A DNA stretch of 64,000 nucleotides, taken from the NCBI GenBank assembly GCA_965178125.1, contig CBCXTV010000001.1:248001-312000 (forward strand), written 5' to 3'. The notes below the pieces were generated by a model that ran no database searches, was not told the DNA's origin, and saw only the letters and a program-made list of their open reading frames with translations. Source of the stretch: Bilabrum cf. latius. Lineage: Eukaryota. The position numbers and the translations under genes are program-made. Shown piece after piece: positions 7,511-63,605 of the stretch (positions are counted from its first letter, which is position 1; every line of letters starts with the position of its first letter).

Positions 7511-7981
7511 ATGGCGAGCGACGCAGAACCGGAGGACGCAATGCGGCTCGACTCCCCTAGAGATGCGGATGCAGCGGCGCCACCCGAAGCGACGGAGGCA
7601 GGATCACAGAAACCAGATCATGCGCAGCAGTTCTTCGAGGAGCCCTGCCCGAAAGACGGACACATGGAAGCGCCAGAGAAGACCGCCAAGACGGACGAAC
7701 CTGGCGACACACCCATGTTCGTCGACAAGTGGACGGCAGCGATCACACGCCTTACCGAGGAGCGCAAGGCTCTCAAGCTCGAGCAGCGGGCTAAAACGAA
7801 GGCCATCCGCAAAACCATCCGGCAGAAAAGGCGCACCATGAAGAACGCCAAAAAACTCACAGACGACGAGCTCGCCCAAATCGTGCTAGACAGGAAGATC
7901 TTGCAGTTGGTGCAAAAAGAAGAGATCGCAGCACGCAGCTCCGCCAACTCCTCAACGAGCCAGGCGAAGTCGACCTTGTGA
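7511..7981 (+). CDS. Hypothetical protein, acidic N-terminus and basic coiled-coil C-terminus
   Basis: ATG 7511 within ORF 7154-7981; helical K/R-rich segment AAITRLTEERKALKLEQRAKTKAIRKTIRQKRRTMKNAKKLTDDELAQIV. Confidence 0.6.
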   Translation: MASDAEPEDAMRLDSPRDADAAAPPEATEAGSQKPDHAQQFFEEPCPKDGHMEAPEKTAKTDEPGDTPMFVDKWTAAITRLTEERKALKLEQRAKTKAIRKTIRQKRRTMKNAKKLTDDELAQIVLDRKILQLVQKEEIAARSSANSSTSQAKSTL

Positions 7982-8340
7982 GAAGCGCTTCCCGTGTTCA
8001 GAGAACCGAGGATTACAGATAGACCCCGCGTCACAGAAGCCATCGCAAGAGGGCAGAGCGTCAAGTACAGCGCAGTCTTGACGGACACAGATAGCCCGAG
8101 CAGCACAAAGCAGCGGATGCGGCTGCCCAGCGGAGTCGCGCACTCGGACAGCATACACGGGACGTGCTGGCAGAAATCACTCAGTCCGCGAGCACCGTCG
8201 TCAAGAGCACGGGAGGGGCAGACTCGACATGCACAACTTTGAAAAACGGGAGGGCACGAAAGGAAGACAAATTTGGCATTAATCCTTGATTACCCCCGCC
8301 CCCCCGTAGAATCAGAGCGAGGAGATATGCTCGGAAGGTC

Positions 8341-8651
8341 CGGGGGGCAGTCGCAGAAAAGTGCACGCGAAAATAAGAGGAAAGGAGACCCCCCAAACCC
8401 ACGTAGTGCGACCCTCGGGGGTACCCTCTAAGGTACTAAGAATCCTTCCCCCGAAAATCGCACTACATCGGTCCCTGGCGTCGGGGAAAGCGGAAAAAAG
8501 GGGAGCACTACCGTGAAAAAATCCTGCATTTTACAGGAAAATCGGAGCACTACGTGTCAAAAACTGGGGGTTTTTGAGGTTTTTTTTCCAGAAAAACGGC
8601 ATTTTTTTATGTAAAAACCGCGCGAAACGAGCACTACCGAGCACTACATCG
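8341..8651. promoter_or_regulatory. Candidate replication origin: inverted repeat plus GAGCACTAC iteron-like repeats upstream of Rep
   Basis: GTAGTGCGA (8403-8411) / TCGCACTAC (8458-8466); GAGCACTAC at 8503, 8545, 8629, 8639; A/T runs; no canonical CRESS nonanucleotide seen. Confidence 0.5.
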
Positions 8652-9155
8652 CCTCCTCCAGTCGTGTTTCGCATTTTTTTCGCTGGCCGAAAATGTCTCC
8701 GAAGGCGCTGCCTCGAGGGGGGGTTCCGATGGCTGATTTTGGGCGTTCTGTTGTCGATTTCGCGTGCATTTCAGGTTGTCGGCGAGGCCTTTTTGGCGTA
8801 TGTCGCAGTTCGGATGCCCTCGAACGTCGTGTCTCATGTGGTATTCGCCGGTTTCTATGTTGGAGAAGGCGGTCGGTCGATCATCCTCTCTGGCAGGCTC
8901 CGAAGTGCGTTTGTGATCGTGCTAATTGCAACGCCATGCTTTCCTTCGTTGGCTTCGAGAATCCTTCCCTCGGAAGCGGTAGTACCTCGCCCAGGGCGGC
9001 ACGAGCTGCAGACTCAGCTGCCTCGGTGCTCATGTGTGTCCCGTGTCAGCAGTTTCGGTGTTACGAACAGCAAGGATTCTGGGCATTGCGTGTCGGAGGC
9101 AAGTGTTCTATCTTGAGGCATTCCGCGATTCGTCGAAGGATTATTTGCGCAAATA

Positions 9156-11441
9156 ATGTCGGCTCCGTTCAAGGGCGAAACGATGAGTTTGTCTGTTGCC
9201 GAGTCGCTGAAGTCCCGAGTCGCATCCTGCTCCTGGGATCCCGCGTGGGTTTCCGCGAGCTGCGTGCCGTGCGATGGCCTCCCCACAAGCCAGGAGTCAG
9301 AAGCGTCCACGACGGCGACCTCTGCTTTGTTAGGGGTGTCCGAGGCGTCCCCAACGTGCTCGTGTGGCCTCGGTGTCTCCAATTCGGTGGCTGCAGCGCG
9401 CGCGGCCGCTGTCCCGAGTTTTGGCTTTGACGATGCGGAGAACGACTTCGACGCCAGTCTCGACATGATTGAGGCCTCATGCGAGGTCGCATGCGAGGCA
9501 GAATGCGAGGGCGATCCGGGAGCCTGCTTGTTGTCCCACGGCAAGTCGAGCGGTCAGTGGCAGATCGGCGTAGTGGGTGAACGAGTCCTTTATGAGGGCC
9601 TCAGCGTTGAGGGCGACATTCCTGGCCGCGTTGCTGCCTCCGAAGCGCTCGCCGCGGGTGTCATCAATTTGGAACCCCCGTCAGAGGAAGTACTTTTGCC
9701 GGTGCAGCTTCTGCGGAGTAGTCAAGGTTACCGTGGGGTTCTGCCCATCGAGGATTCTGCGCCCGATGCGAGGGGGCGACCGCAGATGCTCATGCTCCCC
9801 GATTTCGTGCCCCGCGTGAAGAGGCGGCGTCTTCGGCAGAAGTGCGACCCTGCTGAGGGCGATGCAGCACCGAGTCTTGCGGCTCATCTCGGACCTCCGC
9901 CCGCGGCTCGTGCCGCGGCCGGAGCGTCTGGGCCGCAGCGCTCGACTGGAAGGCCTTCGACTCGTCCTATTGATAGTGTCATCTATCGTCTCCTGCGGGT
10001 TTTCCCTGACGATTTCAAGTTGGCGTTTCCGGCGTCGGTGTCACACCAGCGGAAGCGGTGCCTCATCAGGGAGGCGCTTCGCAATGTACCCGGTGACCGC
10101 ATGTGCATCTTGAAAGACTGGGCTGCGGGGGCGGAGGACACTCCTTGCCAGCTTCGTTTCGAGGAGCTCTTCCCGGAGCTTGCGCGGCAGCGGGACGAAG
10201 TTGTGAGGAATCCGGGATCGCACTCAGTGCCCGTGGGCGAGATTGTGCCTGCGTCCGACAAGAACACGAGGCGGGGAAGGGCCGTGATGCTTACCTTTCA
10301 CGGTCGCTGGGGTGTCGAAAAGGAGCCTGTGCGCGACATCATGTCGGCATCCGTGGCAAGGGGCGTCCTGAGGCGATTGGTTCTCGCGTCTCCGTTCTAT
10401 GTGGAGCTTTGGGCCACCTTCAAGGCATGGGCGCAGGACATCGCGCGGCGGATGATGTGGCCTCAGCTGTCCATGAAAATGGAGCTCTCCCTGCACCGCA
10501 AGCACGCCGCAAACTTGGTGCACTTCCACGTATGCATGACGGATTCCGAGAAGTCGCATCGTTGTCGCGTGGCGGAGGATTTCATGTGGGCCGGCAGCAG
10601 GCCGAATGTCGTCTACGGCTCCGGGCGGTCAGCGAAGGCGCAGGAACGTGGCGCGTCGGAGTTACACTATTATTGTCAAGCTCCCAAAGTCGGTGCGCTG
10701 CTTTGCGCCACGAACTACCGAGCCGGACGCGATTTCGTCGTCAATGGTAAGTTCGTGCACGCGTTGTTCGCACGCTTCAAAATGGATCCGGACGTCGCGA
10801 GAAGGGAACTCGTGGCGTATCGGTGTCGGGACGCCGAGAACTTAGTGCGCGCCATCGACTTCCACATACAGAATACCGCGGAGAGGAGAGAGGTGTGCGC
10901 GCAGGCCGCGGTGCACGTAGTGACGAAGCTCCGCCCCTTTAAGGTGGTGCCCGAAGTCGAGAAGTGGCGCGAGAGCTATCGTCAGGAGTGGTTCGCGCAC
11001 ATGCGCTTCAAGTTCCTTGTCTTGGTGGGGGACTCCCGGTTCGGGAAGACAGTGTACGCGCGGAATCTCTTCGGGAGCGAAAGGACTCTTGTTGTGAACT
11101 GTCAGGGCAGTGTGGAACCTCCGCTCCGTGGCTTCGATCGAAGTCGGCATGTGGCCATTGTGTTCGACGAGGCAAATGCCCTGTGGGTCGTCAACAACAA
11201 ACAGGTCTTTCAGGCTGGCCTTGACCCCTCCCTGCTCGGCCAGAGCAAGACGAACAGCCTCGCATACTCTGTGTGGCTCCACGGTATCGCCCTGATCATC
11301 TGCACGAATTCGTGGGGCTCTGACGTGACGGAGTCGGCGGACCGCGATTGGCTTGACAACAACTGCACGAAAGTGGAGGTGAAAGATCGGCTCTACTTCG
11401 ACGAGGACTTGTTGTCTCTCACGGATGTGCAGAAGAGCTGA
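9156..11441 (+). CDS. rep: CRESS-DNA-virus-like replication initiator Rep (HUH endonuclease + SF3 helicase)
   Basis: Motif I MLTFH, motif II VHFHVC (HUH), motif III YYCQAPK, Walker A GDSRFGKT (cf. geminivirus GDSRTGKT), Walker B IVFDE, motif C IICTN, C-terminal DWLDNNC...LY as in gemini/genomovirus Reps; ~370-aa N-terminal extension with KRRRLRQK. Confidence 0.9.
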   Translation: MSAPFKGETMSLSVAESLKSRVASCSWDPAWVSASCVPCDGLPTSQESEASTTATSALLGVSEASPTCSCGLGVSNSVAAARAAAVPSFGFDDAENDFDASLDMIEASCEVACEAECEGDPGACLLSHGKSSGQWQIGVVGERVLYEGLSVEGDIPGRVAASEALAAGVINLEPPSEEVLLPVQLLRSSQGYRGVLPIEDSAPDARGRPQMLMLPDFVPRVKRRRLRQKCDPAEGDAAPSLAAHLGPPPAARAAAGASGPQRSTGRPSTRPIDSVIYRLLRVFPDDFKLAFPASVSHQRKRCLIREALRNVPGDRMCILKDWAAGAEDTPCQLRFEELFPELARQRDEVVRNPGSHSVPVGEIVPASDKNTRRGRAVMLTFHGRWGVEKEPVRDIMSASVARGVLRRLVLASPFYVELWATFKAWAQDIARRMMWPQLSMKMELSLHRKHAANLVHFHVCMTDSEKSHRCRVAEDFMWAGSRPNVVYGSGRSAKAQERGASELHYYCQAPKVGALLCATNYRAGRDFVVNGKFVHALFARFKMDPDVARRELVAYRCRDAENLVRAIDFHIQNTAERREVCAQAAVHVVTKLRPFKVVPEVEKWRESYRQEWFAHMRFKFLVLVGDSRFGKTVYARNLFGSERTLVVNCQGSVEPPLRGFDRSRHVAIVFDEANALWVVNNKQVFQAGLDPSLLGQSKTNSLAYSVWLHGIALIICTNSWGSDVTESADRDWLDNNCTKVEVKDRLYFDEDLLSLTDVQKS

Positions 11442-11845
11442 CGCCGGCCGCTGAGGTTTTCAGTCCGGTTCACACGAGCGCCGGAGCCGCAGCGGCAGCC
11501 GCTTCGGTGCTCCTGAAGGTCTAATGTCCTCAATGCGTTTCGTGTGCAAAAAGGATGTGGTTTCTACATGGGGGCATTCCGCAAGTTTCATGTGGTCCGT
11601 CGCGTTCGTCCGGGGGAGTGCTTGCCTAGTATTGGGAGCTTGCCTGACACACACACACGTGGCACCCAGCCTGATGGGTTGCAAGTGTGTGTGTGTCTCC
11701 GCAGTGCCGCGGTTGGGACCCGGCGGGTCGTTTGCTTTTACGTCGCCGCGTCGCGCGCCGACGAGACATTTCTTGGTCTCAGAAGCCTCTGCTTCCGGTA
11801 GGCGCGCCGTGTACACTCGCGGGCCGAAGGTGGGTGCGTTGCTTG

Positions 11846-12538
11846 ATGGCCTACGTCGGTATCGCCGATGCACCGTATGTGCCCGTGGTTGCCGCGTCGA
11901 CCTCCGAGCACGCCCCGGAGGGCGAGGTGGAGATGATGCTTGCGCCTCTTGCCGGAGATGTCGGTTTCAAGCGGCCTCGCGTGTTTCCTCCCGGTTCGCG
12001 ACTTCTTCCTAAGTCGCCGGCCCATCCGGCGGTGCTCATAACAGCGCTCGGCAGTGAGGCACCCCAGGACACACAGTGCGTCGTTTGGTCGGACTCTAAG
12101 GCTTTCGACCTCGCGGAGTTTGTATGCTCTTCCTGCGGCTGCAATCGTGTCATGGCGGACCTGAATCATCGTATGCGTGATCGTCTCGTACGTCGCGTGC
12201 AGCGCACGCTTTATGCCGATGATTCTCCGTGCGGCAGGGGTGCGATTTCGTGTCGTGCTTGTCGCGAGAAGGCGCGCGACGCGGCGCCGAAGACGTCGAT
12301 TATGAACGCGGCGAACAAGAAGAAGATCTCGGGAACTCTTCGCATGCAGTTGGATCTCATTGTAGAGACCGGGGAGCGGAAGGGTCAGCGTTGTACTGCG
12401 GAGAAAATTCTGACATTGGGAACGATGAAGCAGCACAGGGTTTTCGAGAGGGACCTTTACGATGAGGCATGGCGCGGGCTTGTTCGTCTGTCTGGACGCG
12501 AGGCTTGGAGCGATGACGACTCGTGGTCTCCGCGTTGA
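11846..12538 (+). CDS. Hypothetical protein with CxxC pairs
   Basis: ATG 11846 within ORF 11687-12538; CSSCGC and CRAC motifs; intact in both full copies. Confidence 0.5.
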   Translation: MAYVGIADAPYVPVVAASTSEHAPEGEVEMMLAPLAGDVGFKRPRVFPPGSRLLPKSPAHPAVLITALGSEAPQDTQCVVWSDSKAFDLAEFVCSSCGCNRVMADLNHRMRDRLVRRVQRTLYADDSPCGRGAISCRACREKARDAAPKTSIMNAANKKKISGTLRMQLDLIVETGERKGQRCTAEKILTLGTMKQHRVFERDLYDEAWRGLVRLSGREAWSDDDSWSPR

Positions 12539-12744
12539 GCTTGCGTGACGGTTTTCCCTCTTAACCTGGCCTCTTGCGTGGCGCTGCTTCCGCGTGTGGC
12601 CTGAGCGTGCGACCTAAGCGTTCGGCCTGCTGTCGCGTGTGACCTGAGCGAACGGGCGCTCGACAGTATCCCGCGTTTGTTGCTTCTGGGGTTCAAGAAA
12701 CTTGTACTTTTTGGGCTGTACGGTGGTCAGTGGTGCACGGTTCG

Positions 12745-12872
12745 TTCGCAGCCTCCGCGTTGTTGGAAAGCTATGGTGGAGCATGGTTCTTTTCGCAGCC
12801 TCCGCGTTGTGATCAAGCTACGGTGGAGCATGGTTCGTGAGCATGGTTCTTTTCGCAGCCTCCGCGTTGTTG
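12745..12872. repeat. Short imperfect tandem repeat
   Basis: TTCGCAGCCTCCGCGTTGT three times, interspersed with GAGCATGGTTC; also at ~39942-40069. Confidence 0.85.
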
Positions 12873-13372
12873 ACACGTGAAAGCTACGCGAACGTGACCA
12901 CACAATAGGCCATACCCCAGGTGAAATCCGGACTCGGACATCCAGACGAAACGGCATCATGCACACTGTTGAACACACAAATGACACTGAGCTCCACCGT
13001 AACGTAACTTTCCATCACCACCTGGTTTATTTTCTCCGCGATGGCAGCTTAGCGGTGACGCTGTGTCTTCGGGCATGAAGGGGCAAATCTTTGATTTTTT
13101 GGGCCCTGTTTCGGTCACCGAAAAGTCGTGTGATTTCTGGCGCGCAGGAGGAGTGACGCAAGGTATTTCTGAACCGTTTTCCGGACGCTTTCCGGGCCTC
13201 CCATGTGACCGCTTTTTGCGTACCGAAACACGTTCCGCGCGTGAGGAGCAGATGCGGATCTCCGCGGGGTCCTAGTTGTGTCCTTTTTCGGGGGACGAAA
13301 TCGGGCGCACTTGTCGTGCCGATTCGTGGTCGTCTCTGAGACCGGCTGCGAGTCGGGAAAGGTGCCCGGGAG

Positions 13373-14665
13373 ATGCTCGTGTCCTTGGCTTCGTATTTCT
13401 CCGCGTATTCTTCAAACGCGGGCGCACGTCTCCTACCGATTCGTGGTCGGTTTCCGAGGCCGATCGCGAGTCGGGAAATGCGCCCGCGATGCGCTCTCGA
13501 TCTCGGAAAGGGCGGGAGTCCGTTCTTGCATTCGGAATGGGCGGGGAGTTGCTTTTCCTGGGAGCATGTGCGAGATTCCTTCTCCGCGGGTCCTCTTTCG
13601 GCTTCGGCAGTCAGCAGCGCACTCTGCGGGAACGGCATTCTCCGAGTCTCTTTGCCGATGATGTCTGAGGAGAAACCCTCCGAGAGCATTGCTGTTTCCT
13701 TGGGAGACGGCCGCAATCTTCGTGCGCGTCGAGGCGCCGGTGATATGGGAAACGAGGGCGGCATGTTGGCGCGCGAGGTCGACGCGCCGGCGGAGCACGC
13801 CGGCGCGGCGGCAAGCGTCGATGATTCGCTCGGCCCCCACATCGAGAGCGGCGGCGCGGAGGCGGCGTCCACGGGGATGCTCGGAGAGGAGAGCGGCAAG
13901 GCAGCGCCGAAGGAGGACGCCGAAGACGACGGCGGCAAGAAGACGGAGGAGGAGGATGCTCGCGGCGGTGGACGTGCTGTGGTGCCCGGAGGTAATGACG
14001 ACGTATGGACCAACGCAGCAGCTTGGAAGGCGGGTGGCGGCGTGGCAGCCGGGGCGGTCTCTGGCGCTGATAGCTGGGATCAATGGGGGACCCCTGCGAA
14101 GTCGTCATGGGGGGAGACGTACGTGCTGCGGCAGGTCGCGTCGGAGCCGGCGGAGGAGGCGACATGGACTTGCAACGCGTGCCAGTGCTGCAAGCCCCGG
14201 TCGGCGTACTTTAAGAAGTGGAAGGACTGGATCCAACCAGTTTGCCGGGTGTGTTGCGACAAGTTCGACAACGCGACGCCGTGGTGGGTGTGGTGCAAGA
14301 GCTGCAAAAACGAGTATCCGGCGTACCGATTTCCCCAGATCCGCCGGAAGAAGGAGAACTTGCGCTATTTCTTCCCTGAGGACTGGTGCGCGAAGTGCCT
14401 GGTTGCGCGTGGCTGGAGTCTCCATGATGTCCGTTCCTCTGCGGGTGAAGCGAAGCGTTGGGTGCCAAAAGCTGGCGCGAATACCGGTGACGGCGACAAC
14501 GACGCTCGTGCTCCCGCACGCGACGAGCTTCCTGCAGGAGGCGCCGCCTCCTGCAGCAACGCCGTGCGTCAGAGTTCTTCGCGTGACGAGGCCTTGGATG
14601 ACATCAAGCGGGCCATGGAGCTTCTCCAGAATGCGGAAAGGTTCCTCCTCACGATGCCAGCGTGA
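13373..14665 (+). CDS. Zinc-finger-like protein (two CxxC...CxxC modules, Stc1-like spacing)
   Basis: CNACQCCKPRSAYF...PVCRVC and WCKSCKNEYPAYRF...WCAKC; acidic low-complexity N-terminal part; true start may be ATG 13658. Confidence 0.65.
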   Translation: MLVSLASYFSAYSSNAGARLLPIRGRFPRPIASREMRPRCALDLGKGGSPFLHSEWAGSCFSWEHVRDSFSAGPLSASAVSSALCGNGILRVSLPMMSEEKPSESIAVSLGDGRNLRARRGAGDMGNEGGMLAREVDAPAEHAGAAASVDDSLGPHIESGGAEAASTGMLGEESGKAAPKEDAEDDGGKKTEEEDARGGGRAVVPGGNDDVWTNAAAWKAGGGVAAGAVSGADSWDQWGTPAKSSWGETYVLRQVASEPAEEATWTCNACQCCKPRSAYFKKWKDWIQPVCRVCCDKFDNATPWWVWCKSCKNEYPAYRFPQIRRKKENLRYFFPEDWCAKCLVARGWSLHDVRSSAGEAKRWVPKAGANTGDGDNDARAPARDELPAGGAASCSNAVRQSSSRDEALDDIKRAMELLQNAERFLLTMPA

Positions 14666-14865
14666 CGCGGGAGCTTCCCGAATGGGTCCGTCGTACTGTG
14701 AGGGCGCTCCGGAAGGAAGAGCGCGAGTGAGTCATCCTTGCGCCGAGGTGAGCGCGACGTCGGAGGAGCACGGTCGTTTGATTGGGAACGATATGGTCGG
14801 CAGAGTGTGAAAATCCGAGTTTCTCGTGCAGGATTGGGCAGCTCTCTAGATATCTTGCCTGGGAA

Positions 14866-15846
14866 GGGTGTGATGTGGTGGGAGCGCTTCCGCCTCACGT
14901 GGCAGACGTCCACACTTCCTGGTTCCCCGGCAGGCTGTTTGGCGAGACGGAGTGGCAAAGCATCCGCCTGCTGATTCCTACTTTGTTACCTCGATTGTGA
15001 GCTCGGAGCTTGGGGCGGAGGATTCTGCGGGCAGCTCATGTGTGCCTAGAGTGTCATCCCGCGACCCTCTGACTTCTGTTCGTGGCTTTACCTCTTCGCG
15101 CAGGAAGATTCCTCATGAGGCAAGCCCGGTCCGAACTCGCGTGGGATGCCGTGCGCTGGTGCGGCTTCCACTCATCCCCGGGGTGGGGAGCGCTGGGTAA
15201 AGGATCGTCTGTCCCTGCAAGTTTCGATTCGACGAGGTGCGGCAGCATGACGCGGACCGAGGTGAAGTCCTTTGTCCGCGATAGGTCGCCGCGTCGCGCG
15301 GTGGCGACCCCACAGCGCCCCAATCCCATTCCGGAGAGGGGGTGTGATGCAGTGGGAGCCCTTCCGCCTCACGTGACAGACGTTCACACTTCCTGGTTCC
15401 CATAAGGTCTTCAGCACAGCGCATGCGAGGCAGGCTGTTCGGCGAGACGTAGTGGCATCGCCCCCGCCTGCTCATTCCTACTTTGTTACCTCGATTGTCA
15501 GCTTGGGGCTCGGGGCGGCGGATTCAGCGGGCAGCTCATGTATGCTGGAGTGTCATCCCGCGACCTCTGACTTCTGTCCGTGGCTTTACCTCTTCGCGCA
15601 GGAAGATTCCTCATGAGGCAAGCCCGGTGCGAACTCCTGTGGGATGCCGTGCGCTGGTTCGGATTCCACTCATGCCCGATGTGGGGAGCGCTAGGGTAAA
15701 GGATCGTCTGTCCCTGCAAGTTTCGATTCGGCTCGAGTCAATGTGAGGAAGGAGAGGTGCGGCAGCATGACGCGGAACGAGGTGACGTCCTTTGTCCGCG
15801 ATAGGTCGCCGCGTCGCGCGGTGGCGACCCCGCAGCGCCCAAACCC
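14866..15846. repeat. Diverged ~475-bp tandem duplication
   Basis: GGGTGTGATG..GTGGGAGC.CTTCCGCCTCACGTG at ~14866 and ~15340, colinear through ..GCGACCCC.CAGCGCCC; also in copies 2 and 3. Confidence 0.9.
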
Positions 15847-16288
15847 CGCCCCGCCTAGTCCTCACTCGACAGCGGTGTCGAACCTGCAGCAGCGCTTCGA
15901 GAACATGCAGCAGCGTGCGGAAAGCTTGAGCGCTCAGCTGGAGTACGCCCAAAGTGTGATCAGGCTGCTCTCAGGCCTGTTGCGCGATGAGGCTCCTCGG
16001 TTCTATGCAGACTTTGATCCCGTGATTCGGCGTGCGATGTCTGGCGCAAGCGGCTCCGTTGCGGGTAGGTCTTTCCGTCTTGTGGACGGAGGCGTCATCC
16101 ACGGACCTGACACAGCAGTCGCTGCTCCTCCGCGTCGTCTCATCGTTGAGGTGCGTACGGACTGGGAGATGACCGAGACTGCCTCAACTGTGCTGGATTC
16201 CTCAGGATCAGACGACATGGGTTCCGAGGACTCGCCGCCGCCGACCGTCGTCCTCCCCAGCGGCGCGGCGGGCGCCGGCGGTGCCTAG
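15767..16288 (+). CDS. Hypothetical protein with short coiled coil
   Basis: VSNLQQRFENMQQRAESLSAQLEYAQSVIRLL heptad pattern; copies differ by a frame-preserving 3-nt indel. Confidence 0.45.
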   Translation: MTRNEVTSFVRDRSPRRAVATPQRPNPAPPSPHSTAVSNLQQRFENMQQRAESLSAQLEYAQSVIRLLSGLLRDEAPRFYADFDPVIRRAMSGASGSVAGRSFRLVDGGVIHGPDTAVAAPPRRLIVEVRTDWEMTETASTVLDSSGSDDMGSEDSPPPTVVLPSGAAGAGGA

Positions 16289-16862
16289 TCCTCGGCAGCT
16301 CCTGCATCGGAGCCTCCTGTCGAGATTCGATCGCGCAACGTCGTTCCTTACATTGCTTGCCGTCGCATGTGCCGGGCGGTGGTGGGTGTGCGTGTTCGCC
16401 GAAAGTTCCCGGCCTCGTCTTCCTCAGGAGAGCTCCTCGACCCGAAATTGGCAGCTCAGCGCTGCCGTGGCCGATACAGTACCCGTGCATGGCCAGTTGG
16501 CAGCTACGCGCTGCCGTTGCCAATGTCGTCCGCACGAGAGCAGAGTGGCAGCTCAGCGCAGGCGAGAAACCGCGCTCGCAATGCTGCGAGGTGTATTCAA
16601 TGCTGTGCACGTGTCTATCCCGCTCCCTGGTTTTGTCTCGCTTGCGCCAGTGTGACCGCAGCAGAGCGGGTGCTTCCCGTGCGTCTTCAGCTTTGAGCAC
16701 TCCTCCAGCGACAGGAAGGCATTCGCTTGCTCTCGCTCCCCGCCTGCGTCCTATCCCTCCCGGGTATCTTCAGAGGCCACAGGCAGTGCGAAGCTTGGCA
16801 GCGGGTCCGTCCGCGTCGTTTCGGCTGTGAGCGATCTTCTGCCCGGTTCCTCACGCGTCATA

Positions 16863-18464
16863 ATGTCCTCTGCTTCGGTGCCGGATCAGCTCGCACGGAT
16901 CAGTAAGGAGCTGAAGTGTCTCAGAGACGCGAGACAACGGGCGCGCAATGGGCTGCGCCATCCGTGGTTGCGCGCCATGGAGGCACAGGTCGCTGAGGTT
17001 ATTCGTCATCACCCCGGCGGTGGCGAGGCAGCTCTTCGAACCTATGTCTCTCGTCAGTTGCAGAGTCGACAGGTTTCCACGCGGACGGCTTCGCAGGAGG
17101 AGTTTCAAAGGCAGGTCGATGAGGAGGTCGCGCTCACCATGAGGCGCCCAGCTGAGGCGTGGCAGCGAAATCCTCTTCGCTCATGTCATCGAGAGTCCGT
17201 GGCACGCGCAGAGACCTTTCTCGCCGAGGCTTCTGTCGTTGCTTGGATCGACCATGTGAACGAGCAGCGTGGGTGTGCTCCAACTGGGAACATGGTTTTC
17301 GCCATGCTTGCGAGGATGGGCGTTCGCGCGGGGAAGGACTCGGCTCGACGGCAGTGGCTCCTGCGCTTCCGTCGTCGTTGGCGGCTTCGGCATGGCCGAT
17401 TGAAGAAGCAGCCCCCGGTAACACTCGATTACGTCAGACTCGCGTGTCGTGTCTTCTATCAGTGGATTGAATTCGCAGAAGCGCGAGTGCCCCCCAACCG
17501 CCGCCTCGTCTTTGTGAATTTCGATGAGTCCAGCGTGCCCTTTGCCTTTCCGGGAATGCGCGGGTACATCGCACCGAGGTCAGGAACGGAGCCCGCTTCG
17601 CTTGGTTCGCGCACGGAGCGCCTCGCCTCGAATAGCAATCGAGGATCGTACACCTTTCTGGGTTTTATTAGCGACTGCCCGGAAATCCAGCGACGACTCC
17701 CGCGTATACTCATCGGGAAGCACACGCGGCTGAGCAAGCGCTTGATGCGTGGGGCGCCGAACCAAATGGTGGACGGAATGGAAGTCTGGGCCCGAGAGAG
17801 CTCGTGGGTGACGCAGTCCCTCATGTTCGACATTCTGCGTCGGCTTTTCGCTTCTTGGATGGACATTCAGCATGAGATCTATCCAATAGTGATACTTGAC
17901 TGCGCGCCCCAACACATTTCCACTGAGATTGTGAACTTCGCACACGGCCTTGGCATGGATCTCGTGTTTATTCCTGGTCGACTCACCTTCCTGCTTCAGC
18001 CGTTGGACGTTCTCGTCTTTCAGCTTCTTAAGCGCGACCTTCGGGAGACGTGGATGCAGGAGCGCTCGCGTCATGAAGCGGGTCATGTCGATGTCTCTTG
18101 CCATCTCAGGGTTGTCGCTGAGTGCACGAAGAGAGTGCTCTCGTCTGGCTCGTGGCAAGGCGCTTTCGATATGACAGGCATTACCAGCGGCAGGCGCCGC
18201 TTGCATTCGACCCTACGGCGCTTGTTTGAGTGTGACATGGAGGACATCTCCAGCGATGCTCCGTCTGTCGACCAGCTCCGCTTCATCAGCAGTCCGCAGC
18301 AGCCTCTCCCGCACGATGCGCTCATCAACAGGGCCCCAGTCGCGTCCGGACACGCGGTCGACGGAGGCGTCCACGGTGGTAACGCTCGCCGCGTGCCTCG
18401 TGGCCGCAGACTAAACGGATGGACCCCCCGCGATCGCGCTCACCCCTCGGCGGCCATGCCGTGA
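16863..18464 (+). CDS. pogo/Tigger-type (Tc1/mariner superfamily) DD35D transposase with CENP-B-like HTH
   Basis: VNFDES (first D), ILDCAPQH (second D), FIPGRLTFLLQPLD..VF..LK (third D, 35 residues after the second); WI...RG...QWLLRFRRRW resembles the CENP-B HTH. ORF opens at GTG 16827, first ATG 16863. Confidence 0.9.
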   Translation: MSSASVPDQLARISKELKCLRDARQRARNGLRHPWLRAMEAQVAEVIRHHPGGGEAALRTYVSRQLQSRQVSTRTASQEEFQRQVDEEVALTMRRPAEAWQRNPLRSCHRESVARAETFLAEASVVAWIDHVNEQRGCAPTGNMVFAMLARMGVRAGKDSARRQWLLRFRRRWRLRHGRLKKQPPVTLDYVRLACRVFYQWIEFAEARVPPNRRLVFVNFDESSVPFAFPGMRGYIAPRSGTEPASLGSRTERLASNSNRGSYTFLGFISDCPEIQRRLPRILIGKHTRLSKRLMRGAPNQMVDGMEVWARESSWVTQSLMFDILRRLFASWMDIQHEIYPIVILDCAPQHISTEIVNFAHGLGMDLVFIPGRLTFLLQPLDVLVFQLLKRDLRETWMQERSRHEAGHVDVSCHLRVVAECTKRVLSSGSWQGAFDMTGITSGRRRLHSTLRRLFECDMEDISSDAPSVDQLRFISSPQQPLPHDALINRAPVASGHAVDGGVHGGNARRVPRGRRLNGWTPRDRAHPSAAMP

Positions 18465-19483
18465 CCTCGACCACGACCATGTCAGGGGCGAACGCGACTT
18501 CGTCAACCTCGAGCACGACCATCCCAGCGGCGAACGCGGCTTCCTCGATGGGATCCCTGACCCCGACGAAGCTTCCCCGACCTCGGCCACGTGAACCTGC
18601 AGGCGCATTCTTGCCCGATGTGCCCGCGCAGGTGGCGGCCTGCACGGCGTGGGCGCCACCGTTTCGTCGACCAGACAGCTCAGCCACTCCGGCGACGCGC
18701 GAGGCGGCAACGTCCACGTGCATCAATCCGTGGACCGCTCTCTCCTGGTATCCGACACCACCGCAGCCGACGGACCCCCCTTCCGACAGGCCTCGCGAGG
18801 TACCGAACCGGAGCTCCCGGCAGCAGCGCAGGCGTCATGCTTGGGGCGGCACGTGGGTGTTCGACGACGCCATTACGCTCAGCGATTGCGGGTCGAGGGT
18901 GCAGATCGACGCGCCGCAGTCGAAGCTCTTGGCGATGGTCCTGCCCCGGAAGTCGGGCCAGTGGATTCCTCGTAGGCTGCGCTCGCGTACGATCTGGTAT
19001 TTGGCTGGGGAGCAGTCGGCCGTGATCACCAACCTCAAGTGCCAGGCCTGCAGTCGGGTCAAGCACGCGGACAGCTTCAACCCGAAGAGCTTGCGTCGGG
19101 CTCAGTACTCGTTGCTGCATTCCCTGTGGCCCGGCTACATACGACGTACCGAGCGGTCTATTTGGTGCACGCAGTGTGCGGTGGAGGACCAGTTGATGCA
19201 GGGCAACTTTCCGGACGGCTACTGTTTCCGGATCCGCGCCACACTCGAAATTTGCCATCAAGATCGCGTCGCGGCCAAGCTGTTTGCAGTGCACGACAGT
19301 AACGCTCTCTTCGAGCAGATCCCGCTGAGCTCCCGTGCGGCCATGGACGTGGCGGAGCAGTTGCGCCGATACTGGCAGGATGCCGTGTCCTCAGACGGCC
19401 AGAGCAACATCTTCCACAGCGACCACGTTTCGACAGACGACGACTCTGAGTTCGCACCGGGCGGACCGGAGAGCGTGCCGTGA
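18419..19483 (+). CDS. Hypothetical protein, S/T/P-rich N-terminus and one zinc-finger-like module
   Basis: LKCQACSRVKHADSF...IWCTQC; overlaps transposase end by 46 nt; conserved in paralogous mosaic fragments. Confidence 0.6.
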   Translation: MDPPRSRSPLGGHAVTSTTTMSGANATSSTSSTTIPAANAASSMGSLTPTKLPRPRPREPAGAFLPDVPAQVAACTAWAPPFRRPDSSATPATREAATSTCINPWTALSWYPTPPQPTDPPSDRPREVPNRSSRQQRRRHAWGGTWVFDDAITLSDCGSRVQIDAPQSKLLAMVLPRKSGQWIPRRLRSRTIWYLAGEQSAVITNLKCQACSRVKHADSFNPKSLRRAQYSLLHSLWPGYIRRTERSIWCTQCAVEDQLMQGNFPDGYCFRIRATLEICHQDRVAAKLFAVHDSNALFEQIPLSSRAAMDVAEQLRRYWQDAVSSDGQSNIFHSDHVSTDDDSEFAPGGPESVP

Positions 19484-19683
19484 GGGACCGCAGCGACAGT
19501 AGCGTCGCTTAGGTGAGGAGCGGGTGCCAATGCTCTTTTGAAAATGGTGTGTCGTACGTACGGCAGGAGCCGTCGGTGGGAGCGGGGCGGATCCTGCGGG
19601 AAGTCGTGGAGACTGAGGGCAGAGACTCTCGGGTCGGTCAGGGTCTCATGTAACGTGCTGTTCACCGCAGAGGTATGTGCGGA

Positions 19684-19936
19684 TCTTGGTGGATCTCTCG
19701 AGGACATGGGTGGCATACCGTTGTGCATCCGTTCCCCGGGGGGGGCGGTCGCAGAAGAGTGCACACGAAAACAAGAGGAAAGGAGACCAACCCCCCAAAC
19801 CCACGTAGTGCGATCCTGGGGGGTACCCTATAAGGTACTAAGAATCCTTCTCCCGAAAATCGCACTACCTCGGGCCACAACGTCTTGGTGGATTCCTCGA
19901 GGACATGGGTGGCATACCGTTGTGCATCCGTTCCCC
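19684..19936. repeat. Second copy of the origin-like stem-loop (19738-19868) between 54-bp direct repeats
   Basis: 19738-19868 matches 8341-8466; GTAGTGCGAT 19805-19814 / ATCGCACTAC 19859-19868; flanks 19684-19737 and 19883-19936 nearly identical. Also at ~46885-47137 and ~60719-60971. Confidence 0.9.
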
Positions 19937-22703
19937 GTCGCTCCCTAACGTCTTCAGTGGCAGGTTCGGAAAAGACACCTCCGTAGGCACGCGACAAGTC
20001 CCGGTGAAGCGGGCTCGCACCGCGCTGGGCGGGAGATCGTGAGCGCTTAGAGGACCGGAGCTTTCGGGCGGGTGCGTGTCTCGACAAACTCCCTCTTGAC
20101 CACGGGCGGGGAACGTGTAGGGCGGAAGCTAAAGACACCGTAAGTAGCGGAGGGCTAACATTCCGTCCTTCGGTGAGAGCCAAAAGTTCGAGTCTGCGAG
20201 AGACTATTATACGAAGTTCTCCCCTCCTCATACGTGCGCATAGCCTCCTCACGCGGTAGCGCGAGCGCGGGACCCGGACCTGTCCCTGATGGGCGTGAAT
20301 CTGAACCCGGCGTACTCTCCTAGTCTGTCACTTCCACGACCTTGTTGTCGCGGAACCACTTGCACGGAGAGGAACCTGTCGTTCAAGCGGGTGCAGCCGG
20401 ACGCGCAGGTGTAGTGCATCGCCTTGCATATGTGCACGGCCAAGTAGATGCCGGAACCGTAGAGGTATCACACTTCCCGCGGAGCTTGGGTGGGTCTTTC
20501 GCTGCTGTCGTCTGCTCCAGAAGGTTTGCGCCAAAAACCGGAAAACTTCTAAGACAGAGGTGGGATGCCAGGAGCTCACGGTCCTGCCGGATTGGGGAGG
20601 TCCATGCCCACGCGAGCCGGGTACGCGTCCAAATCAACGCACAGAGCGGGAGCTGAGGGCGCCAAGGACGCTCACTGTCAGGCACACACAACGCGCACAG
20701 AATTCGTCATTTCGCGTTCAAAGCCTGCCAACGACGTGGCGCTTGGCGAAATGTGGTGGGTGGCGAAGATGTGGTACTTCGCCGTGCCTTTCTCTATGAC
20801 GGCCAAGCGTGCACTCGCCATCGCGCTCGGACGCCACAGGAAGAGATCCCAGCTCGCAGCTCCGCCGCCTCATCCAGGAGTAAGGCGAAGTCGAATCGTG
20901 AATAGCGCTTCGCACCTTCACAGAGCCGAGGATCACAGATAGGCCCCGCCTCACAGAACCCAGCGCCATAGGGCAGAGCGTGAAGTACCTGGCCGCTTGG
21001 CTTGGCCGGACCCCCGCCCGCCCTCCGCCGGCAGCTCCTCCCGTCCGTCCCTATGGAGGCAGATCCGCGTACCCATGCTGCGGCGGGATCCTGACACAAT
21101 CCGCTCCTCTTAGTGTGTGGCCGTGGGGCATGAGTGGAGCAGCATCGGGCCCTCACCAGCCGTGGAACGGAAGCAGCTCTCCGTGCGGCAGCTGTGCGAT
21201 GCACAGACCTCGTCCCAAAGATACGGATCCATTTTGCCGTCTTCCCGCGCATACTGCATCGCTCTGCAAAACTGCATTGCGCAGTGGATCCCCGAGCGTC
21301 GACTGCCAATAGCAGGCGGCCTCGCAAGGCCTTCATGGACGCAGGATTTGGGCTTCTTCATCGTAAATTTGGGGTCTGCTCAGCGCGCGAAAATTCCAAC
21401 GCTTCAAAATGATCCGGACGTCGCGAGAAGGGAACTCGTTGCTTGCTCACCTGTGCGGAGGGGTTGGATGCCCGATGTGCTAAAGAGAGGATACTGTCCG
21501 TCGGCGTTCTCTCTTCACCTTGTGCGGAAGGGTTGGGTGCCTGATTTCAGACAGAGAAGGTCTCGTCCGTTGGGAGCGCTTAGGAATACTTCCGGATGGG
21601 GCGTCCAGACGCGGTCCAGGACCTCCAGCTCGTCGGGGTCAATGTCGCCCGCGCCGTCCGTGCCTTTGACGCCTCTGGATCGATGATGCCCACGATCTTT
21701 GTCATCTCGGACGACACACGTCCCAGCTGCTCTTTGGTAGTGCATTACCTCATTGACCCCGAAGCGTTGAATATTTAATGAAGACCCTTCGGAAGCTGGC
21801 GAAGTTTGTCAGCTTGTCGGAGCGCAGCCTGGGTCCTTGTCAACAAACATGGAGGGTTTCGGGGCGGATTTCCAGCGTTCCGCCTTGATATCGAGTGCAC
21901 CTCGAGGTCGGGATCGAAGCGGGGCGGGCGGTTCGTCATCCTCTGTGATACGCTTAGGAGGCGCCGACTTGATGCCCACCTTGTCCCCCAATCACTCCAG
22001 ACGTAACTGGGGAACTCTTCCCGTCGTGGGCCGGGTACGCCTCCGAATCCCACGCGAGCCGTTCCCCACGGCGCACCGATAAGCGCCGCTGCAAGCGTAC
22101 CAAGAGGGGCGTACCAAGAGGTGCTTCCTTCGCTCGGCAGTGTGGCACTTCAAGCAGTAGAATGTGCCACTCCCAGCACGTAGGTGGAGTTTGCGAGCTG
22201 CCGGCCGACATGCTCGTGTGGTGACCTCCGGCGCACCGATAAGTGCCGCTGCAAGCGCACCAATACTACTTCGCTTGGGAGCGAGGCACTTTAAGCAATG
22301 CAGTGCGCCGGTTTTCGTGCACGCCCAGTCGCGCGGACGCCGCAGGTGGCTTGGCCGTAGGATAGAATTAGTGGCGGGTCGGTTTTGCATGTCTTCCCTC
22401 TCCTCTTGATATGGTACACAAAGGCAAGAGCCTGACGATGCAGACGGAACTCCTGGATTTCACCGCCACATTCCTAGTCAAGACAGCCCTCGACTAAACA
22501 GACGCCGAGTTATCTTGAGCAGCATCCCACGACGCAGTGATGTGGACGGCAAGGGTGATGCCATGCTTTCCGGGCCTCCCATGTGACCGCTTTTTGCGTA
22601 CCGAAACACTTTCCGGGGTCGACGCCCCGGCGGAACACGCCGGCGCGGCGGCAAGCGTCGATGTTGCGGGCGGCCCAGCCATGAGGTACATGATCAAGTA
22701 CAC

Positions 22704-26418: not shown

Positions 26419-26585
26419 ACGGCGGGCGAGCCGTTTTTCAAAAGGAGCACGGGTCCTTCGGGACGCCATTTCACTTACGGCGGGCGAGCCGTTTTCCGAA
26501 TGGTGCGGGGGTCCTACTGATGCACACGGCGATCGCTGGTTCACTCACGGCGGGCGAGCCGTTTTCCGAATGGTGCGGAGTCCTC
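26419..26585. repeat. Three ACGGC-GGGCGA-GCCGT-TTT mini-hairpin repeats
   Basis: At 26419, 26477, 26547; five copies in unit 2 (52588-52875) through a 139-bp duplication. Confidence 0.85.
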
Positions 26586-27098: not shown

Positions 27099-27295
27099 CA
27101 GTGCGCTGGGTAGGTCCGCAGGTCAAGGAGGCGCTCGCAGTTATAGACGTAGGTGGAGTTTGCGAGCTGCCGGCCGACATGCTCATGTGGTGACCGGAGG
27201 TCACCACATGAGCATGTCGGCCGGCAGCTCGCAAACCCCACCTGCGTCTATAACTGCGAACGCCTCCTTGACCTGCGGACCTACCCAGCGCACTG
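27099..27295. repeat. Long hairpin/palindrome, 97-bp arms with 3-nt GGA loop
   Basis: 27099-27195 is the reverse complement of 27199-27295 with 3 mismatches; loop 27196-27198. Confidence 0.95.
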
Positions 27296-35537: not shown

Positions 35538-35848
35538 CGGGGGGCAGTCGCAGAAAAGTGCACGCGAAAATAAGAGGAAAGGAGACCCCCCAAACCCACG
35601 TAGTGCGATCCTGGGTGGTACCCTCTAAGGTACTAAGAATCCTTCCCCCGAAAATCGCACTACATCGGTCCCTGGCGTCGGGGAAAGCGGAAAAAAGGGG
35701 AGCACTACCGTGAAAAAATCCTGCATTTTACAGGAAAATCGGAGCACTACGTGTCAAAAACTGGGGGTTTTTGAGGTTTTTTTTCCAGAAAAACGGCATT
35801 TTTTTATGTAAAAACCGCGCGAAACGAGCACTACCGAGCACTACATCG
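35538..35848. promoter_or_regulatory. Candidate origin with iterons, copy 2
   Basis: GTAGTGCGAT at 35600 ... ATCGCACTAC; same iteron-like repeats. Confidence 0.5.
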
Positions 35849-63500: not shown

Positions 63501-63605
63501 TCACCGCCACATTCCTAGTCAAGACAGCCCTCGACTAAACAGACGCCGAGTTATCTTGAGCAGCATCCCACGACGCAGTGATGTGGACGGCAAGGGTGAT
63601 GCCAT

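Follow-up and report, generated by a model that had tools for sequence, protein, structure and literature searches.

Genes and repeats of the locus

The window, i.e. the whole 64,000-nt stretch of DNA that was analyzed, consists of a 27.2-kb unit repeated in tandem, with 2.4 units that are 99.7% identical. A previous sequence-only reading had overlooked this array and described a ~130-bp element that occurs twice (copies A and B) around an interval carrying genes for Rep and a transposase. As the window is a tandem array, the A/B pair recurs, with A present again at ~35539 and B both at 46941 and at 60775. The features referred to below are listed with coordinates and strand.

8342..8471, plus strand: first copy (A) of the ~130-bp element, made up of a purine-rich leader of 60 nt and a hairpin after it; 90.3% identical to 19740-19873 (blastn)
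8403..8466, plus strand: hairpin proper of copy A, with arms GTAGTGCGA (8403-8411) and TCGCACTAC (8458-8466)
8503..8647, plus strand: iteron block, exact GAGCACTAC at 8503, 8545, 8629 and 8639
9156..11441, plus strand: Rep gene, 761 aa; predicted HUH endonuclease, linker and S3H helicase, all within aa 380-761
16827..18464, plus strand: pogo-type DDE_1 transposase ORF, 545 aa (Pfam PF03184, E 2.2e-11, 44.1 bits, cut-off 22)
19684..19738, plus strand: left copy of the 55-bp direct repeat flanking B (96% identity, spacing 199; repeat search)
19739..19882, plus strand: copy B, a 144-bp insert of leader and hairpin; iterons absent on its 3' side
19805-19813 / 19860-19868, plus strand: hairpin arms of copy B
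19883..19937, plus strand: right copy of the 55-bp direct repeat flanking B (repeat search)
27099..27295, no strand assigned: palindrome where units 1 and 2 meet (arms of 97 nt, 97% complementary, 3-nt gap)
35539..35668, plus strand: copy A of unit 2 (stem arms 35600/35655; iterons 35700, 35742, 35826, 35836)
46941..47074, plus strand: copy B of unit 2
60775..60908, plus strand: copy B of unit 3, a unit without copy A and without the Rep gene

The palindrome marks the 27.2-kb unit that holds Rep, A and B, and its arms are degenerate copies of a piece of orf910 located at 4564-4693. Only two large variants were found, namely a deletion of 1178-13161 in unit 3, which occurred at GGTA microhomology, and a loss of ~490 bp at the unit 2/3 junction. 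No variant in the window has its breakpoint at the hairpin of A or B. Microhomology is also seen at the patchwork junctions. Splicing was rejected as the source of these junctions, since orf910 reads through the "missing" segment 4800-4990 and an AG acceptor is absent.

The transposase assigned to the interval between A and B is indeed present: the DDE_1 ORF alone passes the Pfam cut-off among the 118 ORFs of at least 110 aa. The "ZnF genes" assigned to the same interval did not hold up, as these are Cys-rich ORFs whose sole Pfam match is Stc1 below threshold (E 0.051). No capsid was recognized among the 118 ORFs scanned with Pfam, nor among the seven ORFs scanned with PHROGs. Unlike in pogo/Tc1-mariner elements, A and B are direct rather than terminal inverted repeats around the DDE transposase. 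They were rejected as ends of a DDE transposon because of this orientation and because no terminal inverted repeats were found. A search for inverted repeats flanking 16.1-18.5 kb yielded no convincing candidates, the best pairs reaching 80-84% over 20-25 nt.

The Rep gene encodes an HUH endonuclease with a superfamily-3 helicase at the fold level

Judged by its predicted fold, the 761-aa ORF is a true HUH and superfamily-3 helicase (S3H) Rep, in agreement with the sequence-only reading. The AF2 model (pLDDT 95.1, pTM 0.83) was compared by Foldseek with BFVD, where it matched CRESS Reps at full length over 330-390 columns (E 3e-11 to 1e-7) and also parvovirus NS1. Comparison with PDB returned AAV2 Rep68 (466 columns, E 6e-6), papillomavirus E1, B19 NS1 and vientovirus Rep. 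The helicase resembles S3H folds such as E1, Rep40 and NS1 in these comparisons.

At the sequence level, Rep had no match in Pfam (E ≤ 10) or in PHROGs, and searches of PDB with the sequence and with a 12-sequence profile returned nothing meaningful. A PDB match to allophycocyanin (E 0.91) is noise; with a 115-sequence Rep profile, a match to RBX1 (E 0.007) was spurious and the remaining ones were to generic P-loop proteins. Homologues of Rep were nevertheless numerous: a first search detected 11, and the profile search extended these to 2448 cluster representatives at E ≤ 1e-3, the closest homologues being 53% identical. None of the 59 scanned homologues carries a Rep or viral helicase domain of Pfam, and two of the 59 gave sub-threshold matches to the P-loop families AAA_16 or Rad17. 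In an alignment of 115 sequences, the Rep of the window keeps all invariant (10/10) and near-invariant (14/14) columns. The conserved residues include E64, H77/H79 (HFH), Y127/K132 (YYCQAPK), GKT, D292/E293 and N339, and Y127 is the single invariant, catalytic Tyr of the family. The columns of HxH, Y..K, Walker A/B and motif C are all invariant or close to it. With every family-invariant residue retained, Rep looks functional as judged from its sequence, and the gene is likewise intact in unit 2 (36354-38639).

In the literature searched, we found no characterized origin for any member of this Rep family. A scan of genome contigs returned a single related contig, which is almost wholly ORF over its 1859 bp; a branched hairpin at its 3' end is of limited stability (z -2.2, 7/200 shuffles as stable) and was not counted as evidence.

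Copies A and B share hairpin arms and core

In a blastn comparison of 8241-8760 with the window, 8342-8471 matched 19740-19873 with 90.3% of 134 columns identical (E 3e-45); both lie on the plus strand, which confirms the direct duplication. In a repeat search, this match falls into two stretches free of gaps, one of 49 nt (92%) and one of 87 nt (93%), whose spacings are 11398 and 11402, in line with the reported separation of ~11.4 kb. GTAGTGCGA is present at 8403 and 19805, TCGCACTAC at 8458 and 19860, and TAAGGTACTAAG at 8429 and 19831. The reported inverted repeat is thus present, and its 9-bp arms are unchanged in all copies. Between the arms lies an interior of 46 nt, comprising an inner stem and two mini-hairpins. 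The arms and a core of 19 nt, TAAGGTACTAAGAATCCTT, are identical in 5/5 copies, while the other positions vary, including those of the inner stem. Copy A of unit 2 has three substitutions within 8 nt of the inner stem, 2/3 of which are B-like. The inner-stem changes in B and in unit-2 copy A are not compensated, i.e. the inner stem is not maintained.

Folding of 8395-8475 as DNA gave -18.1 kcal/mol for the plus strand (z -4.63) and -22.7 kcal/mol for the minus strand (z -7.35), with 0/200 shuffles equally stable in either case. The corresponding values for copy B are -16.3 kcal/mol (z -3.92) and -17.6 kcal/mol (z -4.21). Ranked against 5444 sliding 80-nt windows, copy A came 29th on the minus and 426th on the plus strand, and copy B 361st to 945th. 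By simple arithmetic, several 9-bp inverted repeats within 60 nt are expected by chance per unit. The stem by itself is therefore within chance and not thermodynamically exceptional, and the significance of the element rests on its duplication and on the iterons that carry the stem sequence.

Copy B is flanked by its own 55-bp duplication, which argues that it arrived as a 144-bp insert rather than as the end of an 11.4-kb element, and that the direct repeats A and B are not element termini. The flanks of A and of B have no duplication in common. Moreover, B belongs to a group of at least 20 short copies on the same strand that are scattered through 19.7-27.2 kb, and the bracketing by A and B thus need not be designed. 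A degenerate partial copy of the module is located at 8958-8989 (24/32 positions) and does not fold (z -0.5). Beyond A, B and this partial copy, no further copies were found in the 27-kb unit, and a search of the A/B module revealed neither terminal inverted repeats nor a poly(A) tail nor any part resembling a tRNA.

Iterons and a skew minimum adjoin copy A

Four repeats sharing the stem sequence had been reported to follow the first copy. Indeed, exact GAGCACTAC occurs eight times in the window, always on the plus strand and always in the blocks after A in units 1 and 2. Each of these units has four, all inside 145 bp on the 3' side of A, 37-181 nt past the stem; none follow B. The 7-nt iteron core GCACTAC also forms the 3' stem arm and is present in inverted orientation in the 5' arm. 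The presence of the iteron core in both arms links the hairpin to this locus and to a DNA-binding protein that is multimeric. Successive GCACTAC starts are 45, 42, 84 and 10 nt apart. The 27.2-kb unit contains seven GCACTAC motifs, of which five lie in 8460-8647, one in B and one at 5511; none is found across 19870-27195. A T-rich/A-rich tract (~8556-8620) separates the second and third iterons, and the distance from the end of the 3' stem arm to the Rep ATG at 9156 is 690 nt, close to the ~700 bp given before. As also reported before, the exact nonamer NANTATTAC is absent from the window. Matches with one mismatch number 28 versus 25.65 expected by chance, with none in A or B.

The cumulative keto skew, (G+T)-(A+C), is V-shaped, and its minimum falls between the second and third iterons in unit 1 (8564) as well as in unit 2 (35761). 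The plus strand has T>A and G>C starting at 8564 and ending at about 18.3 kb, i.e. roughly over the A-to-B interval; the plateau of the skew starts about 1.4 kb short of B. At 4-fold sites of genes on the same strand, the A:T ratio is 100:48 for the two genes to the left versus 154:272 for the five to the right (Fisher 4e-11). An excess of T over A and of G over C is the direction expected for a strand that is repeatedly exposed as ssDNA. Differing ancestry of two gene sets, or a bias linked to expression, could instead account for the switch in strand composition.

Several other identities of the element were examined. A small RNA gene was rejected, as no tRNA or tmRNA was found and no Rfam family reached gathering score in the whole window; an Rfam match in 8250-8750 is at chance level (E 0.52). 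A bacterial promoter scan of 7900-9300 returned no promoter-like sites. The same region has five terminator-like sites versus 1.8 expected, all on the minus strand, which we do not read as meaningful. A relic of the dinoflagellate spliced leader, queried as a sequence motif, gave no match at up to three mismatches, and a plasmid or phage origin was dismissed after tblastn against PLSDB and INPHARED returned no match.

Comparison with known replication and transposition systems

The locus resembles circoviruses and other CRESS viruses in that its Rep combines HUH endonuclease, linker and S3H helicase at the fold level, and in that stem-loop, direct repeats and Rep ORF follow each other on one strand. 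Iterated repeats that are candidate Rep-binding sites adjoin the stem-loop. According to the available text on the elk circovirus origin, repeats overlap the stem in opposing orientation and have further copies downstream (PMC7659335), and in the window the repeat is likewise found in both stem arms in opposing orientation. However, the window lacks NANTATTAC at the stem-loop apex, the interior is branched and 46 nt long instead of a ~10-nt loop, and the iterons, each 9 nt in length, extend across 145 bp. Motifs II and III of Rep read HFH and YYCQAPK, and no Pfam Rep model matches; in addition, a 27.2-kb tandem unit without a recognizable capsid gene contrasts with a circle of 2-6 kb.

In geminiviruses, it is established that a unit lying between two stem-loops can be released by replication, and the available text on a begomovirus indicates that a repeated stem-loop of 41 nt without iterons is enough (PMC2585570). 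The window shares with this system two same-strand stem-loops flanking a Rep gene. Release from the window is hypothetical: it shows neither a junction nor a released form, and the interval of 11.4 kb includes a DDE transposase.

The geminivirus-like element of Tuber melanosporum (Liu et al. 2011) is described in the available text as having ORFs for a Rep-like protein and for transposases between terminal inverted repeats, and as recently amplified in a eukaryotic genome (PMC3198968). The window similarly has Rep, a DDE_1 ORF and 97-nt inverted unit ends. In contrast to the Tuber element, as far as described there, its Rep belongs to an unnamed family instead of being recognizably geminiviral, its inverted ends are copies of an internal gene fragment and its copies are arranged head-to-tail instead of dispersed; the term "stem-loop" does not occur in the available text of PMC3198968.

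Parvoviruses, including AAV, also combine an HxH-type HUH domain with S3H, in keeping with the Foldseek matches to Rep68 and NS1. The hairpin of the window is predicted to be branched (Y/T-shaped) with repeated motifs nearby that resemble Rep sites. The Rep-binding element and nick site of AAV are based on GAGC repeats. Unlike parvoviral hairpins, those of the window are internal and direct rather than terminal and inverted, and there is no linear genome of 4-6 kb.

IS200/IS605 elements carry a subterminal hairpin at either end, both on the same strand; a small Y1 HUH transposase recognizes them, and the target is not duplicated. Same-strand hairpins are present in the window too, but the enzyme is a large HUH-S3H Rep. 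Replitrons and Helitrons also employ HUH enzymes. The former have short direct terminal repeats, a hairpin at the right end and a Y1 transposase without helicase, and the latter a Y2 Rep joined to a helicase of the SF1B (Pif1-like) type, according to the available text of PMC10288648. The Rep of the window differs from the Replitron enzyme by its S3H helicase, and the direct repeats are not element termini; it differs from Helitrons by its single invariant Tyr and, again, the S3H helicase.

Discussion

From the anatomy of copy A, the fold of Rep, the iteron distribution and the position of the skew minimum we infer binding, nicking and origin activity. We regard it as an even call that A and the iteron/T-rich block (about 8342-8650) are the candidate cis recognition region of Rep, most likely its origin, and probably an autoregulated upstream region. 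In this scenario, Rep oligomers would bind the GCACTAC-core repeats, two of which are inverted in the stem arms and four direct downstream. The T-rich tract would melt and the hairpin extrude, the HUH domain would nick one strand within the invariant GGTAC-containing core, and the S3H helicase would then power unwinding. Several observations count against an origin: NANTATTAC is missing, the stem has 9 bp, the interior is branched and 46 nt long, and the inner stem is not maintained. Moreover, the iterons are spread over 145 bp and do not abut the stem as in circoviruses. The origin-like character previously ascribed to both copies applies to A, which has hairpin, stem-sharing iterons, T-rich tract and skew minimum, but not to B, the iteron-less 144-bp insert. 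Copy B would be a secondary product, a copy of leader and hairpin that was inserted 11.4 kb downstream with a 55-bp duplication, probably by the same copy-and-paste process as the at least 20 other short pieces in the unit. It could also serve as a second nick or termination site.

A dispersed or mobile repeat, or a portable host promoter module without a role in replication, could account for the position of A 5' of a gene, for the degenerate partial copy and for B, which behaves as an insertion with target duplication. GAGCACTAC would then represent transcription-factor sites for Rep, and B a separate insertion. A and B are 90% identical versus 99.7% for the units, and the donor may therefore be another genomic copy. 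We consider this explanation unlikely: the iteron core lies within both stem arms, the skew minimum coincides with the block, the 27-kb unit yielded no copies beyond A, B and the partial one, and terminal inverted repeats, a poly(A) tail and anything resembling a tRNA were looked for and not found.

It is rather improbable that the element has no function, with a chance stem and both copies being debris of the microhomology-driven scrambling and amplification behind the 27.2-kb array. The at least 20 other same-strand short duplications, concentrated in 19.7-27.2 kb, the microhomology at junctions and the statistically unremarkable 9-bp stem fit such debris. However, scrambling leaves unexplained four exact 9-mers within 145 bp whose core is common to both arms; these also coincide with the skew minimum, and the adjoining intact Rep keeps every family-invariant residue.

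The sequence-only reading had proposed paired origins, in which Rep would nick A, displace the plus strand up to B and religate it, releasing an 11.4-kb circle with Rep, the Cys-rich ORFs and the DDE transposase as cargo; IS200/IS605-like peel-and-paste between the same-strand hairpins would be an alternative route. Release is mechanistically possible: A and B lie on the same strand with unchanged arms and core, the plus strand with T>A and G>C spans roughly A to B, and the missing iterons do not disqualify B, given that the 41-nt begomovirus stem-loop sufficed for release in the available text of PMC2585570. Although the geminivirus precedent is thus established, the window does not support such an event, as its 2.4 units contain no circle junction, no solo product, nothing indicative of an 11.4-kb product and no variant with a hairpin breakpoint. 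The same-strand bracketing stands, but the array offers equally valid intervals from A to A (27.2 kb) and from B to A (15.8 kb). The skew plateau before B, the private 55-bp duplication of B and its membership in the scattered short copies also speak against pairing, and so does unit-2 copy A, which has a short B-like patch instead of the left/right chimera expected at a nick site. Taken together, we consider paired origins improbable.

A farther-reaching proposal is a large eukaryotic Rep replicon or mobile element of a new kind. For its origin, a very large, unnamed HUH-S3H Rep family (2448 cluster representatives) would rely on a branched hairpin that lacks the nonamer and is accompanied by 9-nt iterons; Rep would nick at sites resembling GGTA(C), and this nicking would amplify the 27.2-kb unit head-to-tail, spread solo hairpin modules such as B and, by template switching, yield the same-strand patchwork of gene fragments; and the A/B pair could shed a Rep-carrying circle of 11.4 kb. 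That all of this applies jointly is doubtful in our estimation.

If A is a working origin, a very large Rep family that escapes Pfam would gain a concrete cis element, in which a stem of 9 bp and a core with GGTAC are combined with iterons carrying GCACTAC, and one unlike the canonical nonamer origin by which CRESS-like replicons are recognized in sequence data. In that case, A would also connect a Rep of viral type with a eukaryotic 27-kb unit that is amplified in tandem and carries a DDE transposase, and would bear on how replication modules of ssDNA viruses are co-opted by, or become, large mobile or amplifying elements. Even with an inert element, the locus remains a clean case of a Rep gene inside a microhomology-scrambled amplicon.

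Tandem array of 27.2-kb units carrying a duplicated hairpin element

The hairpin element upstream of the Rep gene (copy A, 8342–8471) recurs in direct orientation ~11.4 kb downstream (copy B, 19740–19873), as had been claimed from sequence alone. Comparison of 8241–8760 with the window by blastn gave 90.3% identity over 134 columns on the same strand, and a repeat search resolved the match into two gap-free blocks of 49 nt (92%) and 87 nt (93%), with spacings of 11398 and 11402 nt. The inverted-repeat arms described by the sequence-only reading are present as well: GTAGTGCGA and TCGCACTAC lie at 8403/8458 in A and at 19805/19860 in B, with TAAGGTACTAAG at 8429 and 19831, respectively. Its four repeats following A (GAGCACTAC at 8503, 8545, 8629 and 8639; referred to as iterons) were found, and the distance to Rep, estimated at ~700 bp, is 690 nt from the hairpin end to the ATG at 9156. 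A canonical nonamer, reported to be missing, is indeed absent from the window in exact form (NANTATTAC, 0 matches); its 28 one-mismatch matches compare with a chance expectation of 25.65, and none of them lies inside A or B.

Self-comparison by blastn revealed a feature that the sequence-only reading had missed. In the window, a 27.2-kb unit is repeated head to tail ~2.4 times, and the A–B interval is nested within it. Positions 1–22921 match 27196–50128 with 99.67% identity, 13162–22921 pair with 54193–63962, and identity between units amounts to 99.5–99.9%. Since the array is tandem, A and B recur along the window.

Features of the array
1–27195: unit 1
27196–53012: unit 2
53013–64000: unit 3, without an equivalent of 1178–13161 and thus without A and Rep
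3904–6636: orf910, 910 aa
9156–11441 (+): Rep, 761 aa
16827–18464: DDE_1 transposase, 545 aa
35600/35655: A-type stems of unit 2
46941–47074 and 60775–60908: B-type copies
27099–27295: palindrome at the unit 1/2 junction, 97-nt arms
330–940, 27524–28104 and 53342–53926: arrays of 53–54-nt tandem repeats

The palindrome arms correspond to a piece from inside orf910 (4564–4693), of which they are degenerate copies. At the unit 2/3 junction ~490 bp are missing, the palindrome included. Base 1 of the window coincides with the centre of the junction palindrome, suggesting that the contig or the window begins at a fold-back point. Near each unit start, two arrays of the 53–54-nt repeats, with ~3.5 copies each, are located within a 394-bp higher-order repeat; these could represent another protein-binding array.

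Anatomy of copy A

When folded as single-stranded DNA, region 8395–8475 forms a 9-bp outer stem, a 7-bp inner stem and two mini-hairpins. Fold energies were -18.1 kcal/mol for the + strand (z -4.63) and -22.7 kcal/mol for the - strand (z -7.35), and none of 200 shuffles was as stable on either strand. Copy B folds more weakly (+ strand: -16.3 kcal/mol, z -3.92; - strand: -17.6 kcal/mol, z -4.21). When the unit was scanned for folding in 5444 sliding windows of 80 nt with RNA parameters, A ranked 29th on the - strand and 426th on the + strand, while B ranked 361st to 945th. Judged by these ranks, the stem is real, yet not extraordinary.

The arms and the 19-nt core TAAGGTACTAAGAATCCTT are unchanged in 5/5 copies, and the inner stem varies among copies without compensation. 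Copy A of unit 2 carries three substitutions within 8 nt, two of which are B-like, the remainder of 340 nt being identical; this cluster could stem from gene conversion over a short patch, or the site could be a local hot spot. The substitutions are located at 35609–35617, i.e. in the 5' half of the inner stem.

Exact GAGCACTAC iterons follow A, but not B: all eight copies in the window reside in two A-associated blocks on the + strand. Their core, GCACTAC, is at the same time the 3' arm of the hairpin, and its inverted form is the 5' arm. GCACTAC occurs seven times per unit, five times within 8460–8647 and once in B, and none follows B up to the unit end. Successive cores are spaced by 45, 42, 84 and 10 nt, and a T-rich/A-rich tract (~8556–8620) separates iterons 2 and 3. 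This layout parallels that of circovirus origins, for which PMC7659335 describes hexamer repeats that can lie across the stem, oppositely oriented, and are repeated downstream of it. At 8958–8989, ~170 nt 5' of the Rep ATG, the right half of the hairpin is present a third time in degenerate form. This copy matches at 24/32 positions, including a 12-nt exact stretch (AGAATCCTTCCC), and shows no folding (z -0.5).

Identification of Rep by its fold

The neighbouring ORF had been taken for a Rep gene, and this assignment holds at the level of the fold, whereas no sequence library names the protein. Pfam returned nothing even at E<=10, PHROGs gave no match, and the PDB searched by sequence yielded nothing meaningful. 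The family is large: a word-seeded search retrieved 11 homologues, and a profile search among 1.84 billion representatives detected 2448 members at E<=1e-3, of which 720 reach E<=1e-30, counted as representatives at 50% clustering (P0001–P0155 are used as handles for family members). The closest homologues, P0001 and P0002, share 53% identity with it and come from contigs of 9.5 and 14.5 kb. A Rep or viral-helicase Pfam domain was detectable in 0/59 homologues scanned. It was structure prediction alone that identified the protein as an HUH-S3H Rep.

The AlphaFold2 model, computed from an alignment of 115 sequences, reached a pLDDT of 95.1 and a pTM of 0.83. Foldseek aligned it with CRESS-DNA Reps in BFVD over 330–390 columns (E 3e-11 to 1e-7; genomovirus, geminivirus, crucivirus and unclassified) and also with parvovirus NS1. 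In the PDB, full-length AAV2 Rep68 was matched over 466 columns (E 6e-6), and further fold matches comprised papillomavirus E1, B19 NS1 and vientovirus Rep. The TM-scores were low (0.25–0.37), which we attribute to domain orientation. Alignments showed that the window protein has kept all family-invariant residues. The motifs encompass a motif I-like LTWNGxWG, an invariant Glu, HxH (HFH in the window protein), GHYYxQxxK with invariant Tyr and Lys, as well as Walker A (GxSxxGKT), Walker B (FDE) and C(S/T)N. Both unit 1 and unit 2 carry an intact copy of the gene. A Replitron or Helitron is excluded by the helicase type, following the account in PMC10288648. A search at abstract level, which does not prove absence from print, yielded no account of the Rep family or of an origin belonging to it.

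The sole related locus retrieved is L001; this 1859-bp contig, listed as part of a proteobacterial MAG, consists almost entirely of an ORF encoding a 567-aa Rep homologue. Just 3' of this ORF, positions 1765–1859 fold into a stem that encloses two hairpins (z -2.2; 7/200 shuffles equally stable), a signal too weak to speak of conservation. A 22-nt motif of this region is also present inside the ORF.

Other genes of the unit

The proposed transposase proved to be a DDE_1 (pogo-type) ORF, the only one to pass the Pfam cut-off among 118 stop-to-stop ORFs of >=110 aa in unit 1. The designation of further ORFs as ZnF genes could not be upheld: they are Cys-rich, and a match to Stc1 remained below threshold (E 0.051). 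For orf910, eight unnamed homologues of 767–859 aa were found with E down to 0, along with a weak, glucosyltransferase-like PHROG match (E 0.0016). ORFs with a coding-like GC1>GC2<GC3 pattern are located on the + strand without exception. Plasmid or phage matches were not obtained, which together with the DDE_1 family points to a eukaryotic source.

Strand composition switches within the iteron block

The cumulative (G+T)-(A+C) curve of unit 1 reaches its minimum (-810) at 8564, climbs to ~+160 at 18.5 kb and then forms a plateau. Unit 2 yields a curve of the same shape with the minimum at 35761. An effect of gene orientation is ruled out as the cause, because the genes on both flanks are on the + strand. 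At 4-fold sites, the A:T ratio is 100:48 in the two left genes vs 154:272 in the five right genes (Fisher 4e-11), and the G:C ratio is 189:222 vs 473:432 (p 0.04). Synonymous sites of orf910 favor A over T, and the Rep-side genes show the opposite. In bacterial and human skew jumps, an excess of G and T on the outward strands is the polarity of replication origins. By analogy, the polarity of the switch would be that of a replication origin; equally, it could mark where two gene sets that differ in ancestry meet.

Copy B and the proposed 11.4-kb circle

Copy B is part of a 144-bp piece (19739–19882) sitting between two 55-bp copies that are 96% identical, the simplest reading being an insertion with a long flanking duplication. 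It is one among at least 20 short same-strand duplications within the unit, whose targets are mostly packed into 19.7–27.2 kb, a patchwork of pieces of orf910, Rep, a Cys-rich ORF and others. The patchwork (19700–27195) comprises at least 20 same-strand copies of 37–1169 bp sourced from 1100–19205, including Rep fragments 10163–10199, 10475–10620, 10772–10813 and 11276–11331. Within it, 22700–23760 contains a 72-nt tandem repeat inside a 499-bp duplication, with an orf910 piece (6087–6219) fused to Rep and orf354 fragments; the tandem repeat yields long spurious ORFs on both strands. No duplication is common to the flanks of A and B, and A...B does not resemble a single inserted element.

The sequence-only reading had proposed release of an 11.4-kb circle with Rep, ZnF genes and transposase between A and B. 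Geminivirus replicational release, reported in PMC2585570 also for a 41-nt stem-loop repeat alone, is a true precedent for this idea. The window shows no 11.4-kb product, and its large variants do not involve A or B. In unit 3 the deletion has its junction, 1177|13162, in a GGTA microhomology (54190–54200). These two sites are also connected in the tail of unit 1 (26797|26798; 26790–26805), the two junctions differing by 4 nt; either the rearrangement recurred or it was inherited. Neither A nor B takes part in these two junctions or in the deletion at the unit 2/3 junction. Moreover, A of unit 2 carries a short B-like patch and is not the left/right chimera expected under nick-to-nick release. 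Of the earlier interpretation, the Rep and the origin-like nature of A stand; the circle lacks support, and copy B is likely to be incidental.

GGTA lies <=6 nt from 5/39 patchwork boundaries (source side: 1180, 4800, 11283, 13164 and 18798) vs 0.73 expected (P 0.0006, 20000 random draws), a figure to be read with three caveats: the motif was picked post hoc, a single junction contributes two of the boundaries (one from each side), and one boundary was refined by eye. The hairpin core holds GGTAC twice. GGTA at the boundaries may hint at a motif resembling a Rep nick site.

A candidate origin for Rep

The combination of Rep, transposase and inverted ends in amplified eukaryotic DNA has a precedent in Tuber melanosporum, where PMC3198968 describes an amplified element with a Rep gene, transposase ORFs and inverted ends. 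From the observed anatomy, Rep fold and skew, we infer the following course of binding, nicking and initiation. Once Rep is bound to the six GCACTAC cores, melting of the T-rich tract and extrusion of the hairpin would follow, and the HUH domain would nick within the invariant core. Copy B would be a by-product, which could, but need not, serve as a second nick or termination site. Taken together, A and its iteron block are best supported as the cognate recognition region of Rep, and most likely they are its replication origin.
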